Notes: a model not told the origin generated them from the sequence alone. Shown: positions 6,622 through 13,257, numbered from the stretch's first letter. The stretch: DNA of 32,000 nucleotides from Thermus thermophilus HB8 (GCF_000091545.1 NC_006461.1:862778-894777); one strand, 5' to 3'. Program-made: numbers and translations.

Positions 6622-8856
6622 ATGCAGGAAACGCTTTTAGAGTTTTTCAAGAAGACGGGGAGGCCGCACCGGCTGGAGGAGATCCTGCACCGGTTCGGCC
6701 TGGAGAAGCGGGAGGCCAAGGCCCACCTTAAGGCCTTGGTGGCGCGGGGGCTTCTGGAGAAGAAGGGAAGCCGGTACTTCCTGGCCAACCGGGTCCAGGG
6801 GCCCTTAAGCCTCCATCGGGACGGGTACGGCTTCGTCCGCCTCCCCGAGGGGGACCTCTTCGTCCCCCCGGGGTACACGGGGGACGCCTGGCCGGGCGAC
6901 CTGGTGGAGGCCCGCGTCATGCCCCCGGGCCGGGACGGAAGGCCTTGGGGGGTGGTGGAGCGGGTCCTCAAGCGGGCGCGGGAGCGGCTCGTGGGGACCC
7001 TGGACTTCCGGAAAGGCCGCGCCCTGCTCCTCCCCGACGAGCCCAACCTCCCGGAGCTTCCCCTCGCCCCCGAGGGGCTTGAGGGCCTGAAGCGGGGAAG
7101 CCGCATCGTGGTCCAGGTCCACTACGGCAAGCGCCCCTACGGGACCTTCCTTGCGTACCTGGGGGAGGGGGAGGCCCCCGAGACGGAGACGGAGGCCGTC
7201 ATCGCCAAGTACGGCCTCCGCGCCGAGTTCCCCGAGGAGGTCCTGAAGGAGGCGGAGGCCATCCCCTTGGAGATCCCCGAGGCGGAGCTTAGGCGGCGGG
7301 AGGACTTCAGGGGCCTTCGGGTCTTCACCATAGACGGGGTGGACGCCAAGGACTTTGACGACGCCATCCACGTGGAGCGTCTGCCTGGGGGCTACCGCAT
7401 CGGGGTCCACATCGCCGACGTCTCCCACTACGTCAAGGAGGGAAGCCTCTTGGACCAGGAGGCCTTCCTCCGGGGCACCAGCGTCTACCTCCCGGGGCGG
7501 GTCCTCCCCATGCTTCCCGAAAGGCTTTCCAATGGGGTCTGCTCCTTGAGGCCGGGGGAGGACCGCTTGGTCCTCTCCGTGCTCGTGGACCTCACGGAGG
7601 ACCTAAAGGTCAAGCGGGTCCGCTTCCGGGAAGGGGTCATCCGGAGCGTCGCCCGCCTCACCTACACCGAGGTGGAGGCCTTCGCCGAGGGCTTCGGCCT
7701 TCCCGAGGAGCACGCCTTCCTGGCGGAGGACTTGCGCCTCCTTTTGGACCTCACGCAGAGGATGCGGGAGAAGCGCCTAAAGGAGGGCGCCTTGGACTTC
7801 GCCTTCCCCGAGGTGAAGGTGGAGGTGGGGGAGGAGGGGGAGCTTCACCTCATCCCCCAGGCGGAGCCCAAGGCCAGAAGCCTCATTGAGGAGCTGATGC
7901 TCCTCGCCAACCGGCTGGTGGCGGAGTACCTGGTGCAAAAGGGCCTCCCCGGCCTCTTCCGCGTCCACGAGGAGCCGGTCCAGGACGCCTACGAGAAGCT
8001 CCGCCAGGCCCTGGCCCGCCTGGGCTATACCCTCCCCCCCAAGCTTTCCGGCCACGCCCTGCAAAAGGCCCTCCTCGCCTCGCGGGGCCGCCCGGAGGAG
8101 CCCGTGGTGGCCTACCTCGTCCTCCGCTCCTTGCGCCTGGCCCGCTACGCCCCGGAGAACCTGGGCCACTTCGGCCTCGCCATGGAGCACTACCTGCACT
8201 TCACGAGCCCCATCCGCCGCTACCCGGACCTGGTGGTCCACCGGGTGCTGAAGGCCGCCTTGCGCCGGACCCTCACCCCGGCGCGGAAGGCGCGGTGGCA
8301 AGAGGCCTTTCCCGCCATCGCCGAGCACGCTTCGGAGATGGAAAGGAAGGCGGAAGCCGCCGAGAGGGAGCTCACCAAGTACTACATGGCCAAGTGGGCC
8401 GAGCTCCACGTGGGGGAGCGCTTCTTGGGGAAGGTCACCGGGGTGGCGAACTTCGGGGCCTTCGTCACTTTGCCCAACGGGGTGGAGGGGCTGGTGCGCC
8501 TCGAGGCCCTGGGGCCCTACACCTACAGCGAGGAGGCTATGGCCCTCCTCGGCCCCAAAGGGCGGAGGATCCGCCTCGGGGACGAGATGGAGGTGCGGAT
8601 CGCCGGGGCCAACCCGAGGCTTAGGCAGGTGGACCTCCTCCCCGTGGAGGAGGCGCCCAAGAAGACCAAGAACAGGAAGGAAAAGGCTAAGGAGGTGGAG
8701 ATGCGCAAAGTGGTAGGACCCCCCAAGGACCGGGCCCGGGACACCCGTCCCGAGCGGGCCACGGTGAACACCATCTACTTCGGCGAGTGGACCCCCAAGG
8801 AGCCCGAGGAGCCCCGCCCGGAGAGGACCCGGGCCCGCAAAAAGCGGCGCCGCTAA
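6622..8856 (+). CDS. rnr: ribonuclease R
   Basis: 744 aa. RNB domain motifs (TIDGVDAKDFDDAIHVE, HFGLA...YLHFTSPIRRYPDLVVHR), an S1 domain (GKVTGVANFGAFVTL) and a Lys/Arg-rich tail. Confidence 0.93.
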   Translation: MQETLLEFFKKTGRPHRLEEILHRFGLEKREAKAHLKALVARGLLEKKGSRYFLANRVQGPLSLHRDGYGFVRLPEGDLFVPPGYTGDAWPGDLVEARVMPPGRDGRPWGVVERVLKRARERLVGTLDFRKGRALLLPDEPNLPELPLAPEGLEGLKRGSRIVVQVHYGKRPYGTFLAYLGEGEAPETETEAVIAKYGLRAEFPEEVLKEAEAIPLEIPEAELRRREDFRGLRVFTIDGVDAKDFDDAIHVERLPGGYRIGVHIADVSHYVKEGSLLDQEAFLRGTSVYLPGRVLPMLPERLSNGVCSLRPGEDRLVLSVLVDLTEDLKVKRVRFREGVIRSVARLTYTEVEAFAEGFGLPEEHAFLAEDLRLLLDLTQRMREKRLKEGALDFAFPEVKVEVGEEGELHLIPQAEPKARSLIEELMLLANRLVAEYLVQKGLPGLFRVHEEPVQDAYEKLRQALARLGYTLPPKLSGHALQKALLASRGRPEEPVVAYLVLRSLRLARYAPENLGHFGLAMEHYLHFTSPIRRYPDLVVHRVLKAALRRTLTPARKARWQEAFPAIAEHASEMERKAEAAERELTKYYMAKWAELHVGERFLGKVTGVANFGAFVTLPNGVEGLVRLEALGPYTYSEEAMALLGPKGRRIRLGDEMEVRIAGANPRLRQVDLLPVEEAPKKTKNRKEKAKEVEMRKVVGPPKDRARDTRPERATVNTIYFGEWTPKEPEEPRPERTRARKKRRR

Positions 8857-8971: not shown

Positions 8972-9323
8972 TGCTATACTTGTCAGCAAAATTACGATGC
9001 AACTGGCTTTCTTTGGGCTTTGAAAAACAAAGCTCAGTCCGGTAGCCCCTTCCTCGCCGAAATTTTGACCTGGCCCAACGTTGCGGTGTGTGCTATACTC
9101 CCCCTAACCCGGACCTCCGGGTGGGGACCTTGAAAGCCAGTTTTTCCCTTGCGGAAGGCGAATATGCGCTTTTTCTTTTCATCGCCCCTTCCTCCTGTGG
9201 CTTTGCATCGGCATAAACCCCCGAAAACCCCCGTTATTCGCCGTGTGCATATTCCAAGCTTCATCTTTCTCACAAACCCCCCTCTGGCGGCGCCGTCCAG
9301 GACGGGGTTCTTTGGGGGGTACC
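8972..9323 (+). promoter_or_regulatory. CRISPR leader region with two extended -10-like boxes (TGCTATACT)
   Basis: GC content is visibly lower than in the flanking DNA. TGCTATACT occurs at 8972-8980 and 9091-9099. The region ends at the first repeat, and its orientation fits the repeat direction. Confidence 0.4.
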
Positions 9324-10418
9324 GTTGCAAGGGATTGAGCCCCGTAAGGGGATTGCGACTCGTAAGCGATAACGGGGAGGGCGACGCCAATCGCGTTGCA
9401 AGGGATTGAGCCCCGTAAGGGGATTGCGACGCCACGGCGTACGCCGCCGCCCAGAGGGCCTTCTGGTTCAGGTTGCAAGGGATTGAGCCCCGTAAGGGGA
9501 TTGCGACTTTGCGAGGATTACCCCCTCGGTGGGCCCGAGGAGGTTCGTTGCAAGGGATTGAGCCCCGTAAGGGGATTGCGACCACGTCCCTCACGACCGA
9601 GGCCAGGGACGTCTTCACGTGGTTGCAAGGGATTGAGCCCCGTAAGGGGATTGCGACCTCCCTCCTTTCCCGCCTATCTTACTCCCCCATGAGGTGTTGC
9701 AAGGGATTGAGCCCCGTAAGGGGATTGCGACACTTCAAAGTGAAGGAGCCTAGGGGCTTGGTCATAGACTGGCGTTGCAAGGGATTGAGCCCCGTAAGGG
9801 GATTGCGACGGCGAGGAGCCGCCGCACCCCGATGATCTTGCCGTCGGAGTTGCAAGGGATTGAGCCCCGTAAGGGGATTGCGACCATTGGCGTGGGTGCC
9901 ACCCCGCCTACGCCGATGCTACGGGTTGCAAGGGATTGAGCCCCGTAAGGGGATTGCGACTTTGCCCTTCTAGGGCCTTCTGGAGTTCGTGAAGGTTCGC
10001 CACGTTGCAAGGGATTGAGCCCCGTAAGGGGATTGCGACCTTCAGGAATGGGCACGCCCACCTGCCGGAGAAGTTCAATGTTGCAAGGGATTGAGCCCCG
10101 TAAGGGGATTGCGACCTAAGCAGGAGGAGGCCCACGGCCTGGTAGAGGCCAAAATAGTTGCAAGGGATTGAGCCCCGTAAGGGGATTGCGACATCTCTAA
10201 CCAGGCTACGGAGAGGATAGTGGAACTCTACCGGGTTGCAAGGGATTGAGCCCCGTAAGGGGATTGCGACTATCAAGGGTCTTCCGCAAGCGGAAGGCGC
10301 GCGGGGAGTGTTGCAAGGGATTGAGCCCCGTAAGGGGATTGCGACCAGCCCGCTCCATCTCGGCCAGCTCTAGGGCGTGGGGACCAGTTGCAAGGGATTG
10401 AGCCCCGTAAGGGGATTG
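9324..10418 (+). CRISPR. CRISPR array, leader-proximal part: 14 full 36-nt repeats plus the first 32 nt of repeat 15
   Basis: Repeat GTTGCAAGGGATTGAGCCCCGTAAGGGGATTGCGAC starts at 9324, 9395, 9472, 9547, 9622, 9696, 9774, 9849, 9925, 10004, 10080, 10157, 10235, 10310 and 10387. Spacers are unique and 35-43 nt long. The 3' ATTGCGAC matches the 8-nt crRNA 5' handle known for Thermus type III systems, so transcription is on the + strand. Confidence 0.97.
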
Positions 10419-10433
10419 ATACTGTCTTGCCTG

Positions 10434-11387
10434 TCAAGCGACCCCTTGATCTAGCTGGGTTGCGTAGTACTCCCTGAGCCTTCCCATCATCCGCCTGAGG
10501 AGCTTGTGGGCCACGGCCACCAACGCCTGCTTCTTTCTCTTTCCCCGCGAGAGCAGGCGGTGGTAGAAGGCCCGCATCTCCGGGTCATGGCGCACCGCCA
10601 CCAGGGCGCCCATGTAGAGCTTTCGCCGCAGGAGGGGAGGCCCTTTTTTGGAGAGCCGACTCCTCTCCACGCTCTTTCCCGACTCCTCCCGCTCGGGGAT
10701 GAGCCCCGCGTAGGAGGCCGCCCTCTTCGCCCGGCCCCAGAGCTCTGGGGGCAGGAGGGCCAGCACCGCTGCCGCCACCTGGGGCCCCACCCCGGGCAGG
10801 GCCATCAGGACCTCGGCCTCGGGGAGGGTGGCGAGGAGGGCCTGGATCCTGGCCTCCACCTCCCCGAGAAGCCCCTTCACGCAGGCCAGCTCCTTCTGGA
10901 GGAGGGCGAGGACCTCCTTGCTCCCCGCCCACTCCGCCGCCTCCATCTGGTTGAGGATGGTCCTTTCCCGCCCGGCCAAGTCCTCCCGGTAGCCCACCAG
11001 GGCTTTGAGCTCCCGGAGGGTTTCTGGGGGTAGGGTGTAGGCCCGGAGGTCTTCGTGGTAGACCTGGGCGTAGCGGGCGAGGAGGAGGGCGTCTTGGCGG
11101 TCGGTCTTCTGGCGTTCTCCCTTGGCCTTGCGGAAGGCGGCGAGGTGGTAGGGGTTGACCAGGGCCACCTGGAGGCGGTTTTCTGCCAGGAGCTTGAGGA
11201 GGGGGAGGTGGTAGGCGCTGGTGGGCTCCAGGGCGACCCAGGCGGGGTTGTGGTGGGCGAGGGCGGCGAGGAGGGCTTGACGGCCTTCAGGGGAGTTGGG
11301 GAAGCGGAGGCGGGTGGGTTTGGGGGAGTTGGAGACGAGGGCCAGGTCCAGGTGGGTTTTGCTGACGTCAATGCCGGCGAAGGTCAT
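10434..11387 (-). CDS. IS110-family transposase/recombinase (DEDD N-terminal domain, Transposase_20-like C-terminal domain)
   Basis: 317 aa. MTFAGIDVSKTHLDLAL... (the DEDD-type GIDVSK start), ...LMALPGVGPQVAAAVLA... (HhH) and ...SGKS...RLSKKGPPLLRRKLYMGALVAVRHDP..., all typical of IS110. Confidence 0.93.
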   Translation of the reverse strand: MTFAGIDVSKTHLDLALVSNSPKPTRLRFPNSPEGRQALLAALAHHNPAWVALEPTSAYHLPLLKLLAENRLQVALVNPYHLAAFRKAKGERQKTDRQDALLLARYAQVYHEDLRAYTLPPETLRELKALVGYREDLAGRERTILNQMEAAEWAGSKEVLALLQKELACVKGLLGEVEARIQALLATLPEAEVLMALPGVGPQVAAAVLALLPPELWGRAKRAASYAGLIPEREESGKSVERSRLSKKGPPLLRRKLYMGALVAVRHDPEMRAFYHRLLSRGKRKKQALVAVAHKLLRRMMGRLREYYATQLDQGVA

Positions 11388-11576
11388 GGGCTCTCTCCTT
11401 TTGGTAACCTGAGGGAGGTGGCCACCCGACCCTGTGGGCCTTCCATGTGGATGCGGTCTTTGACGACCGGGATACTGTGCGGCGGGGAGGCCGGGGTGGG
11501 TGGCTACCGATCAATCCCGCGGGCGTGGTGGCCCGGCAACCGGGGCGGTGGGGCCTCCCTCAGGGGGCAAGATACA
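11388..11576 (-). ncRNA. candidate IS110 bridge (guide) RNA in the non-coding left end
   Basis: 11-nt complementary segments (11408-11418 CCTGAGGGAGG and 11554-11564 CCTCCCTCAGG) enclose about 135 nt. Inside, 11510-11518 is the reverse complement of the repeat/IS junction GGGATTGAT (10412-10420). Also inside, 11471-11478 GATACTGT repeats the IS end at 10418-10425. The RNA itself is inferred, not observed. Confidence 0.35.
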
Positions 11577-11578
11577 TG

Positions 11579-11952
11579 CGACTCGGTTATGGCCCTCCAA
11601 AAGGCCCTTGTCTTCTCCAGTTGCAAGGGATTGAGCCCCGTAAGGGGATTGCGACCACCTCACCTCCACTCGCTTATCACGCGCCTCCACCAATGGTTGC
11701 AAGGGATTGAGCCCCGTAAGGGGATTGCGACGGGGTCATAGATCCAGTCCCTAGGCGGGCCGAGGCGAATCCGTTGCAAGGGATTGAGCCCCGTAAGGGG
11801 ATTGCGACTTGCTGATTGTGAATGATGCCCATTCCTCCTTAGAAGGAAGTTGCAAGGGATTGAGCCCCGTAAGGGGATTGCGACGCTCGTCACGGGAAGC
11901 GCAAAAAGGTAGCTCCTAAGGGTTGCAAGGGATTGAGCCCCGTAAGGGGATT
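11579..11952 (+). CRISPR. CRISPR array, distal part: last 4 nt of repeat 15, four full repeats and a 31-nt truncated terminal repeat
   Basis: CGAC at 11579-11582. Full repeats at 11620, 11696, 11773 and 11849. A truncated repeat at 11922-11952 ends in GGGGATT. Spacers are 37-41 nt. Confidence 0.95.
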
Positions 11953-12030
11953 ACTGTCTTGCCCATCAAGCGACCCCTTTGTCGTGGGTGAAGGCCTGTA
12001 CCCCTCGCGCTAGGAGGCTTTCACGCAGGC
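11953..12030 (-). mobile_element. remnant of the 3' end of a second, related IS110-family element
   Basis: 11953-11979 matches the IS end 10421-10447 at 25 of 27 nt (ACTGTCTTGCCyrTCAAGCGACCCCTT). The reverse translation ends ...FTHDKGVA*, compared with ...ATQLDQGVA* in the intact transposase. The inner boundary is uncertain. Confidence 0.45.
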
Positions 12031-12144: not shown

Positions 12145-13257
12145 TTAGAGGACCAGGGTGCCCGCCCCCACGGCGCTTAGGGTGGGGGCCTCGAGGTCCA
12201 GGCGGTGGGCCAGGACCTTCCCCTTCCTTTCCCGGAGGAGGGGGAGGAGGCTTGCCACCACCTCCACCCCGTCTATGCGGGTGGGGTTGGCCCCCAGGAA
12301 GGCGAGGGCGGCCTCCGGCTCCCCTTCCGCGAGCCTTTCCAGGAAGCCCAGGTCCCGCCTCCTCGCCTCCTCCGCCAGGGTGCGGGTGAGGGGGGTGTCC
12401 CCGAAGCGGGGCCCCACGTGGGAGAGGTCCACGGCGAGGACGAGAAGGCCCGGGAAGTCCCGCAGGACCACCTTCAGGGCCTCCCCGAGCTCCGGGCTTC
12501 GCCTGGCCACGAGGAGGGGGAGGACGCGGGCCTCGGGGAACCGCCCCTTCAGGAAGAAGAGGGGAAGCTCCAGGCTGTGCTCCTCCCGGAAGGCGAGGGG
12601 CGTGTTGAAGAGCTCAAAGGGAAGGAGGGCGTCTAAGGCCTGGAGGGCGGGAAGGTCCGGCAGGGCGGGGCCGAAGGGGGTCTGGAAGGGCACGGGAAGG
12701 GCGGCGGCCTTCTCCTTCAGCGGCCTGTGGGCGACCCCCACCAGGTAGATGCGCTCAGGGGGCGGGGTCTTCTCCAGGGCGGCGAGGGCCGCCCCGTAGA
12801 CCTCGGGGACGCGGGAGGGCTCCAGGTGGGGCATGAGGAGGACCCGGGCCTCCTCGCCTTCCCCCGGGTAGCTCGCCCGGAAGGCCTCGAGGAAGGCCCG
12901 GGCCTCCCGCTCGCCCTCGGGATAGGAGAGCCCGGCGAGGCGCATGGGCCGCTCCCGCTTGAGCTTTTCCTCCTCCTCTTTGAGCCTCGCCTCCACCTTC
13001 TCCGTGAGGAGGAGGCCCGCCTCCTCCAGGGCCTTCGCCAGGTCTTCCAGCTCCTTCTTCGGCACCAGGACCCCGTGGCGCTTGAACACCTCCTCCTGCA
13101 CCTCCTCCAGGGTCCTCCCCTCCATGAGGGAGAGGAGGAAAAGCCCGCCCTCGGTGAGGGCCAGGGGCTTCTCGTAGACCCCGTAGGGGTCGGAGACCAG
13201 GAAGCCCCCCTCAATGGGGGTGATCTGGGGTTCCCGAAGCCTGAGCCTCCCTTCCAC
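12145..13257 (-). CDS. MEMO1/AmmeMemoRadiSam-system-protein-B family protein with about 105-aa N-terminal extension
   Basis: Memo motifs: REEHSLELPLFFL, AVDLSHVGPRFGD and GANPTRIDG. The N-terminal extension resembles a PqqD-like winged helix (see finding). Overlaps the cca 3' end by 47 nt. Confidence 0.85.
   Translation of the reverse strand: MEGRLRLREPQITPIEGGFLVSDPYGVYEKPLALTEGGLFLLSLMEGRTLEEVQEEVFKRHGVLVPKKELEDLAKALEEAGLLLTEKVEARLKEEEEKLKRERPMRLAGLSYPEGEREARAFLEAFRASYPGEGEEARVLLMPHLEPSRVPEVYGAALAALEKTPPPERIYLVGVAHRPLKEKAAALPVPFQTPFGPALPDLPALQALDALLPFELFNTPLAFREEHSLELPLFFLKGRFPEARVLPLLVARRSPELGEALKVVLRDFPGLLVLAVDLSHVGPRFGDTPLTRTLAEEARRRDLGFLERLAEGEPEAALAFLGANPTRIDGVEVVASLLPLLRERKGKVLAHRLDLEAPTLSAVGAGTLVL

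Follow-up and report, generated by a model that had tools for sequence, protein, structure and literature searches.

A Thermus thermophilus CRISPR repeat interrupted by IS1000B, an IS110-group element whose predicted bridge RNA probably reads the repeat

Insertion sequences (ISs) of the IS110 and IS1111 groups habitually settle at multicopy sites, including REP sequences, attC sites and the inverted repeats of Tn21. For IS621, an IS110-group element of Escherichia coli, experiment and structure have established that recombination is guided by an RNA, the bridge RNA (PMC11208160, PMC11208158). The related elements IS1000A and IS1000B were catalogued earlier (Ashby and Bergquist 1990; ISfinder; Blesa et al. 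2019, PMC6352166), and IS1000B appears in Supplementary Table 5 of Durrant et al. as a member of group IS110 with 'Detected Bridge RNA End: LE' (PMC11208160). In the literature that joins IS1000, IS110 or bridge RNA to CRISPRs (short palindromic repeats that are clustered and regularly interspaced), with subscription journals outside our coverage, we found no statement that CRISPR repeats are targeted. Here we analyze a copy of IS1000B that interrupts a CRISPR repeat within a 32,000-nucleotide (nt) stretch of the Thermus thermophilus HB8 genome (GCF_000091545.1 NC_006461.1:862778-894777; hereafter the window, with positions counted from its first nucleotide). An original prediction, made from this sequence alone, had proposed that an IS110-family element is programmed by guide-like segments in its non-coding end to home into the host's own CRISPR repeat.

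The insert occupies positions 10419-11578 on the minus strand, antisense to the transcription of CRISPR RNA (crRNA), and measures 1160 base pairs (bp) with one copy of the core dinucleotide or 1162 bp with both. In a megablast search against plasmids it was identical, at full length and 100% identity, to T. thermophilus megaplasmid copies annotated 'IS110-like element IS1000B family transposase'. Its recombinase gene (10434-11387, minus strand) encodes a protein of 317 amino acids (aa) with the make-up of the group's recombinases, an N-terminal DEDD RuvC-like domain and a C-terminal Tnp domain that bears the catalytic serine (PF01548 DEDD_Tnp_IS110, E = 2.9e-31; PF02371 Transposase_20, E = 3.1e-24), and the family assignment of the original prediction is thereby borne out. 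Its homologues of solved structure include the transposases of IS621 (8WT6, E = 2.5e-30) and ISCro4 (9T56, E = 1e-34); aligned with the latter, the motifs GIDVSK, E-x-TS, KTDxxDA and ESGxSV coincide around the residues expected to be catalytic.

The host array (9324-11954, plus strand) consists of 14 intact repeats, the split repeat 15, four further intact repeats and a truncated terminal repeat, for a total of 20 units. Its 36-nt repeat, GTTGCAAGGGATTGAGCCCCGTAAGGGGATTGCGAC, is a match to Rfam CRISPR-DR36 and is present in 18 intact copies in the window. We drew the element boundaries from the joined halves of repeat 15 together with 17 left-end and 32 right-end junctions found elsewhere. On one side of the insert lie the left 32 nt of repeat 15 (10387-10418, plus strand), which end in GGGGATTG (10411-10418) and whose final TG (10417-10418) is one copy of the core; on the other side (11577-11582, plus strand) the second core copy, TG at 11577-11578, is followed by CGAC (11579-11582), the last 4 nt of the repeat. 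Repeat 15 is thus split as GGGGATTG/CGAC, and its halves of 32 and 4 nt rebuild exactly one 36-nt repeat, with every coordinate of the predicted precise insertion confirmed. Read on the element strand, the left 32 nt become the core CA followed by the right target ATCCCC..., and CGAC becomes the left target GTCG. The core on the element strand is CA (TG on the plus strand), as compared with the usual CT of the IS110 group.

The remaining architecture is that of the IS110 group as well. The non-coding end upstream of the recombinase gene lies where it had been placed, and its length is 191 nt (11388-11578) rather than the 189 nt originally given; the stop codon is only 15 nt from the other end. 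IS1000B is therefore laid out with a long left end and a very short downstream end, without DDE-type terminal inverted repeats, and it is inserted at a fixed sequence in one orientation, with the 2-nt core on both sides and no other duplication. On every sequence-level criterion, IS1000B reads as an IS110-group element. Taken together, the insert is very probably an intact IS1000B, an IS110-group IS of T. thermophilus that moves by bridge RNA-guided recombination.

We read the element on its own strand, the minus strand of the window, using the IS621 definitions (PMC11208158) and the published IS621 scaffold. This reading predicts a bridge RNA of about 157 nt (11408-11564, minus strand, with predicted ends) that is closed by an 11-bp helix, P0 (11408-11418 with 11554-11564). 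Indeed, the closing complementarity that had been noticed there is exact: 11408-11418 (CCTGAGGGAGG) is the perfect reverse complement of 11554-11564 and would form an outer helix enclosing both loops. The target loop reads, in RNA order, CC, CCGGUUGCC, hairpin, GC, GGGAUUG and AU. Its left target guide (LTG), CCGGUUGC(C) (11535-11543, minus strand), has the same sense as spacer bases s3-s1, GTCG and the first core base; the hairpin GGGC-CACCAC-GCCC (11521-11534, minus strand) follows, with 94% of cells paired; and the right target guide (RTG), GGGAUUG (11512-11518, minus strand), is complementary to the core CA plus ATCCC. The adjoining pair AU (11510-11511, minus strand), a handshake guide in the sense of PMC11208158, is complementary to the last two bases of the left donor arm. 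The reverse complement of the target/donor junction that the original prediction had noted in the non-coding end corresponds to the RTG plus this handshake pair, in the target loop. This 9-mer, GGGATTGAT, occurs only at 10412-10420 (plus strand) and 11510-11518 (minus strand), as compared with 0.11 matches expected by chance, and none of 100 shuffles gave two.

The donor loop is organized in the same manner, in the RNA order GC, ACAGUAUC, CC, hairpin, GC, AU-cc-ACAUG and GA. The left donor guide (LDG), ACAGUAUC (11471-11478, minus strand), equals the left donor (LD) plus the first core base, the LD being the ACAGTAT of the right-end terminus (10419-10425, minus strand) that the LDG would read. 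The direct copy of the IS terminus described in the original prediction is this same guide, situated in the donor loop and reading the opposite strand; as an 8-mer, GATACTGT, it is found only at 10418-10425 and 11471-11478, where 0.07 occurrences would be expected by chance in 32 kb. A hairpin, CGGUC-GUCAAA-GACCG (11454-11469, minus strand; 98% of cells paired), separates the LDG from the right donor guide (RDG), AU-cc-ACAUG (11444-11452, minus strand), of which nine RNA bases, as read from the sequence, would form discontinuous pairs with seven bases of the donor (CATGTAT). In the left-end terminus (11569-11576, minus strand), the right donor (RD), TGTAT (11572-11576), overlaps a -10-like box, TATCTT (11569-11574), so that the donor formed by the joined ends is ACAGTAT-CA-TGTAT. 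The right end carries a -35 box, TTGACA (10432-10437, minus strand), which overlaps the transposase stop codon. Once joined, the ends read TTGACA, 17 nt, TATCTT, a sigma-70-type promoter at the sequence level, and no promoter-like site is predicted in the integrated form. By analogy with IS621 (PMC11208158), these boxes would function as a circle-junction promoter.

Structural evidence for the two loops came from folding and from relatives. The single-sequence fold has a z-score of -3.0, and the proposed 41-pair scaffold is 89% paired across nine relatives, as opposed to 34-53% when the partners are slid. The target-loop stem carries compensatory changes among these relatives, and RNAalifold recovers P0, P1, both hairpins and P2. 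The two-loop bridge RNA that had been anticipated in the non-coding end is therefore supported both by its IS621-like layout and by scaffold pairing in relatives.

The more telling evidence is found in relatives that are 54-86% identical to the window element, given here by our own labels (L018, P0006 and so on), among which six related lineages show the RTG, LTG and LDG changing together with the DNA. For example, the P0006 type (86% aa identity) shares the scaffold of the window element and differs in its target loop in the LTG and RTG segments only; in at least four places its LTG, CCUUACAC, is found with CCTTACA-CA (8/8) and its RTG, GAUUUUG, with CA plus AAATC (7/7). Similarly, the P0014 type (L075) combines the RTG CAUUUUG with CAAAATG, and the P0027 type (57%; L065) combines the LTG UUAACCCA with TTAACC-CA and the RTG UAUUUUG with CAAAATA. 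In the P0024 type (61%) the LTG UAGUGCUUCA agrees with TAGTGCTT-CA at 10/10 positions, and in L018 (54%) the RTG AGGGGUG is matched by CACCCCT. The P0008 type (83%) inserts at repeats ending in ATTGCAAC; its LTG, GUUGC, fits GTTG plus C perfectly and its RTG, GGGAUUG, is unchanged. The LDG and the right-end DNA also change in concert, as ACAGUAUC with ACAGTAT, ACCGUAUC with ACCGTAT (L003) and ACGGUAUC with ACGGTAT (L018, L065). Judged by this co-variation with DNA in relatives, the LTG, RTG and LDG segments are guides, and we assign them as such because they co-vary with the DNA, not because of the fold.

Several of the sister lineages (L042-L046, L059, L075 and L065; 57-86% aa identity) carry guides for CCTTACA-CA-AAAT[C/G/A]. 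This site is located at the end of IS256-family elements, with Transposase_mut genes adjoining, so that one IS homes into another. Two loci, L016 and L017, were considered as counter-examples on account of mismatches between flanks and guides, and were set aside when further copies of the same lineage (L042-L046, L059, L075) were seen to match cleanly. It is worth noting that L017 (45-90) and L042 (600-640), which come from different samples, have in common a left flank, GTAGCACACGAAGG-CA, that mismatches their LTG, CCUUACAC; the right flank of L017, CATAATT, agrees with its RTG at 5/7 positions. Other copies differ in their left ends. In L035 (1380-1500; AP019802.1) the recombinase gene is intact and a deletion of about 72 nt, at CATGTATCTTGCCCCCTGA-TCCCCGCCGCACAGTATC, has removed the 5′ strand of the outer helix along with the whole target loop; this copy, with a repeat on its right and a non-repeat sequence on its left, could be mobile only with a bridge RNA supplied by another copy. 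In L008 (2760-2840; T. arciformis) a tandem duplication has affected the initial 29 nt of the left end (GTCG CATGTATCTTGCCCCCTGAGGGAGGCCCT ATGTATCTTGCC...).

To describe site choice, copies and relatives were gathered from genomes, metagenomes and assemblies, and their junctions were read in genomes of Thermus and in metagenomes from hot springs. On the left side, 17 distinct junctions are occupied, and these end in GTCG, GTTT or GTTG. Among 32 distinct right-end junctions, 20 begin with CAATCC, and 19 of these 20 are recognisable CRISPR repeats, most of them with more copies of the repeat in the same locus. The occupied repeats span at least eight families, whose last eight bases are ATTGCGAC, ATTGAAAC or ATTGCAAC, and the orientation is constant across junctions, with the recombinase gene antisense to crRNA. 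In the window itself the 11-nt target, GGGATTGCGAC, occurs 18 times, always within repeats. Homing of IS1000B into CRISPR repeats is thus strongly supported by sequence comparisons at 19-20 independent sites and by guides that change with their targets, in agreement with what had been predicted.

The further suggestion that every repeat in the genome is a landing site proved right in that repeats are targeted and wrong in treating them as equivalent. The LTG extends 5′ of GUUGC as C-C-C-G and should in this manner read one to four of the first spacer bases. In fact, occupied sites match RNA bases C35-G38 at 2.06 of 4 spacer positions on average, as compared with 1.17 of 4 for 160 empty repeats from the same loci (Mann-Whitney p = 5e-5; a rough comparison, as the empty sites are mutually dependent and the lineages differ slightly in those RNA bases). 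Likewise, the repeat-adjacent base on the element strand is G at 12 of 17 occupied sites and at 54 of 160 empty ones. With an LTG that reaches into the spacer and is better matched where the site is occupied, the repeats differ from one another as landing sites. A search among plasmids for uninterrupted versions of two occupied plasmid sites was swamped by repeats, and its best candidate was itself occupied.

A number of observations weigh against a bridge RNA programmed for CRISPR repeats, and we gather them here. A search of 11388-11578 against Rfam 15 gave no match at the gathering threshold or at E values up to 10, and no bridge-RNA family was among any of the Rfam matches, so that this negative carries little weight. 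At the window repeat the LTG is imperfect, with one U:G wobble and the second core base unmatched, and in the P0006 type its register appears displaced 5′ by one base relative to that of the IS1000B, P0008 and P0024 types. The donor-loop handshake, GA, does not match target positions 6-7 in any lineage and was for this reason not counted as a guide. The CA core departs from IS621, in which the second core base is a nearly invariant T that is contacted by the protein. We infer, moreover, the expression, ends and activity of the RNA. An empty-site allele with this same spacer context did not turn up among plasmids, and some copies occupy sites that mismatch the guides (L017, L006/L020-L022, the main L002 copy and L030). 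Finally, the single-sequence fold pairs GGAUU of the RTG with the LTG region, and the possibility raised in the original prediction, that the matches fall in stems rather than loops, is to this extent realized. We nonetheless rejected this stem as the working structure, as its pairing is not kept in P0006-type relatives and the segments involved track the flanking DNA.

One of the mismatched sites may be described here in its own right. In L006 and L020-L022 a copy with an internal deletion, which brings IS positions 1-133 up against 768-1160, lies at a non-CRISPR site, CCGGGTT-CA-ACCCTATTG. The site matches the guides in part, having CCGG of the left flank in common with the LTG, and the copy has the look of an insertion made off target. 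The label of L006, an uncultured archaeon bin, probably reflects a mis-binned Thermus contig.

The anatomy of the sequence, the repeated choice of one kind of site and the co-variation of guides with flanks are observed directly, and they can be assembled into a proposed mechanism. IS1000B would excise as a circle, and the joining of its ends would build a promoter from TTGACA in the right end, 17 nt and TATCTT in the left end, from which the left-end bridge RNA of about 157 nt and then the recombinase gene would be transcribed. The donor loop would read the element's own joined ends, with the LDG ACAGUAUC and the RDG AU-cc-ACAUG on ACAGTAT-CA-TGTAT, and the target loop would read the last 11 bases of Cas6-type repeats, GTCG-CA-ATCCC on the element strand or GGGAT-TG-CGAC on the plus strand. 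Here the RTG GGGAUUG would pair with CA plus ATCCC, and the LTG CCGGUUGC with GTCG and the adjoining first core base on the opposite strand and with the first one to four bases of the spacer; after strand exchange, the handshake AU that follows the RTG would pair with the donor arm. Recombination at the CA core would then place the element between ATTG and CGAC, always antisense to crRNA transcription. In this scheme the transcription, circle formation and chemistry of IS1000B, like any effect on fitness or immunity, are those that we infer.

What such insertions do to the arrays that receive them can be partly read from the loci. The leader of the window array (about 9150-9323) sits upstream of its first repeat, and crRNA is transcribed on the plus strand for that reason; the same leader sequence also adjoins the first repeats of other Thermus arrays and is almost identical to the leaders of the plasmid-borne arrays L033, L036 and L076. 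The cut between ATTG and CGAC falls inside an 8-nt stretch that we take to be the T. thermophilus crRNA 5′ tag, and because of this the spacer just downstream should lose its 5′ tag. In L033 and L036 (around 2469-2620) the IS lies in the leader-proximal first repeat, with the whole array behind 1.16 kb of antisense IS. In L001 (2700-4120) and L036 (1200-2620) the repeats on either side of the IS copy belong to different repeat families; in L001, for example, the left junction is the GTTT of ...GGTGAGGATTGAAAC and the right one CAATCCCCTTTCGGGGAAGC..., a repeat whose intact copies start with GTCG. These two loci read as chimeric arrays, as would be expected from recombination between IS copies in different arrays.

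Remnants of the element are also present. The terminal repeat of the window array (11922-11952) is cut off at GGGGATT and fused to a 28-nt remnant of the IS1000 right end (11952-11979, minus sense), which corresponds to IS positions 1132-1159 at 93% identity (blastn) and departs from the canonical junction by a 3-nt deletion and two substitutions. In L032, from another strain with different spacers, the same array is closed at the same chromosomal place by the remnant in its canonical form, ...ACAGTAT-CAATCCCC. The fusion suggests the scar of an older insertion, after which the IS was deleted together with the part of the array that lay beyond it. In L058 (1740-1880; T. brockianus chromosome) one repeat, downstream of an IS copy, follows ...GGAGTAT in place of GTCG (...GGAGTAT-CAATCCCC); the GTAT equals the final four bases at the right end of the IS and may be the minimal footprint of a lost copy. 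From the structure of these loci, IS copies appear to seed array deletions and fusions. The genes that flank the window array, RNase R (6622-8856) and Memo (12145-13257), are both housekeeping genes, and no cas genes are found beside the array in the window.

The original prediction went on to propose that IS1000B is an anti-CRISPR mobile element, that is, one selected because landing in repeats disables host immunity, to its own benefit or to that of co-travelling elements. The position of the insertion inside the crRNA 5′ tag sequence, at the cost of the next spacer, is what such an adaptation would call for, as are the copies in leader-proximal first repeats (L033, L036), the scars that mark truncated or chimeric arrays (window 11952-11979, L001, L036, L058) and the match of the guides to the most conserved part of several repeat families. 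However, occupancy is low, at 1/19 usable repeats in the window array and a handful among the 52 HB8 repeat copies counted in PMC6352166, and the spacers on the leader side of the insert are intact. Across the IS, the crRNA strand has no predicted intrinsic terminator, and sister lineages with the same scaffold target IS256-family ends, so that a multicopy neutral site would be the habit of the family; that the IS gains from weaker immunity is an assumption. We regard an adaptive anti-CRISPR role as unlikely, and this part of the original prediction was not supported by the evidence. Most likely, CRISPR repeats offer IS1000B a multicopy, conserved and non-coding safe harbour, one that is available not only on the chromosome but also on megaplasmids and in other species of Thermus. 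We prefer this safe-harbour reading because occupancy is low, leader-side spacers are mostly untouched and sister lineages are directed to IS256-family ends; under it, damage to CRISPR memory is a side effect.

A wider proposal, which seems to us doubtful and is put forward tentatively, is that the target loop is tuned to the tag-encoding bases of Cas6-type repeats, ATTG[C/A][G/A]AC, common across many CRISPR types, that IS1000B spreads between replicons and species by way of immune loci, and that it is a main driver of spacer loss, array truncation and fusion in Thermus, which would amount to natural antagonism of CRISPR memory by an RNA-guided element. A single step separates the left guide GUUG from each of the three tag variants. 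In addition, the LTG has complementarity to the 5′ tag of crRNA (GCGAC and the spacer base that follows), and abundant crRNAs and the bridge RNA could as a consequence titrate each other.

Site specificity could instead reside solely in the protein, which was the assumption for IS110 elements until 2024; the RNA-like matches would then be incidental. This explanation can draw on the fact that a role for the RNA is known here from sequence only, and on the conservation across the family of donor-end sequences that could be protein sites. Yet recombinases that are 78-86% identical and accompanied by identical scaffolds differ in two guide segments and have targets that match them at 7/7 and 8/8 positions, the first position of the RTG, whether G, C or U, tracks single-base changes in the target, and the homologous IS621 is guided by RNA. 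We therefore consider specificity by the protein alone to be very improbable.

A reading in the opposite direction was published in 2019. The ISfinder entry for IS1000A/B is 1196 bp long, its positions 1165-1196 are identical to T. thermophilus CRISPR repeats, and it was accordingly proposed that a 32-bp end segment owned by the IS had been recruited as a CRISPR repeat (PMC6352166). This hardly deserves further consideration, as the flanking halves of 32 and 4 nt rebuild one 36-nt repeat and 1160 + 36 gives exactly the catalogued 1196, at least eight different repeat families adjoin these same ends of the IS, with a flank that follows the local family, sister elements with the same termini have unrelated flanks, and the flank matches RNA guide segments; on this comparison of sequences, recruitment is contradicted and its direction reversed. 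Positions 1165-1196 of the ISfinder entry equal the 32-nt repeat half, and most likely the boundaries of the entry include target sequence, namely the split 36-nt repeat.

The preferred reading, homing into CRISPR repeats as a safe harbour, presents a natural case in which an RNA-guided bridge recombinase appears to be programmed against the repeat of another RNA-guided system, at the bases of the crRNA 5′ tag. It would correct the catalogued boundaries of IS1000A/B and reverse the published view that CRISPR recruited IS1000 sequence. IS1000B is also a thermophilic bridge system of compact form, whose core is CA and whose native RTG measures 7 nt, and natural variants closely related to it are already reprogrammed to other targets, which should be of use for studies of guide rules and for engineering. 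For Thermus, it supplies a testable cause of spacer loss and chimeric arrays, and the first-repeat insertions of L033 and L036 are the best natural cases in which to look for effects on crRNA production.

Among known systems, IS6110 of Mycobacterium tuberculosis resembles IS1000B in that the IS is often found in a CRISPR array, the DR locus, where IS-mediated deletions remove spacers; unlike IS1000B, it is a DDE element of the IS3 family with a loose hot-spot preference, without a guide RNA or a fixed position in the repeat. Also comparable are the IS1111-group elements that target attC sites, and IS4321/IS5075, which target the inverted repeats of the Tn21 family (seekRNA; Siddiquee et al. 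2024, PMC11187229). These too are RNA-guided DEDD systems that home in one orientation into a conserved multicopy sequence of another element, a likeness that extends to the IS1000 sister lineages targeting IS256-family ends. In the IS1111 group, however, the guide RNA is encoded at the other end, subterminal inverted repeats are present and the targets are not CRISPR repeats.

A further close match is IS621 of E. coli (PMC11208160, PMC11208158). Both elements have a DEDD plus Tnp recombinase, a bridge RNA in the left end upstream of the gene, and a promoter that is rebuilt, by prediction in IS1000B, when the ends are joined. In both, two loops each follow the order stem, guide, hairpin, G-N linker, guide, 2-nt handshake, stem; the LDG, ACAGUAUC, is identical and identically placed (A123-C130 of IS621), the RDG shows the same discontinuous 2+2+5 pairing, the donor arms are ACAGTAT and TGTAT, and the target-loop handshake is AU. 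Both also address a multicopy repeat, REP elements in the case of IS621 and the CRISPR repeat in that of IS1000B. The two also differ. The core is CA in IS1000B and CT in IS621, the native RTG is 7 nt rather than 4 nt, and the IS1000B target loop is the more compact one, its linkers measuring 2/0/2/0 nt as opposed to 3/1/2/4; segment lengths otherwise agree except for three shorter target-loop linkers and for the two hairpins, both of which differ in length, the donor hairpin being the shorter one in IS1000B. Moreover, IS1000B is without a separate 5′ stem-loop, an 11-bp helix enclosing both loops instead, its LTG misses the second core base, and its donor-loop handshake, GA, misses the target. 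The element has been on record since 1990, and that it has a bridge RNA is already catalogued; what appears to be new, within the literature covered, is the programming of such an RNA for CRISPR repeats as a class of target.

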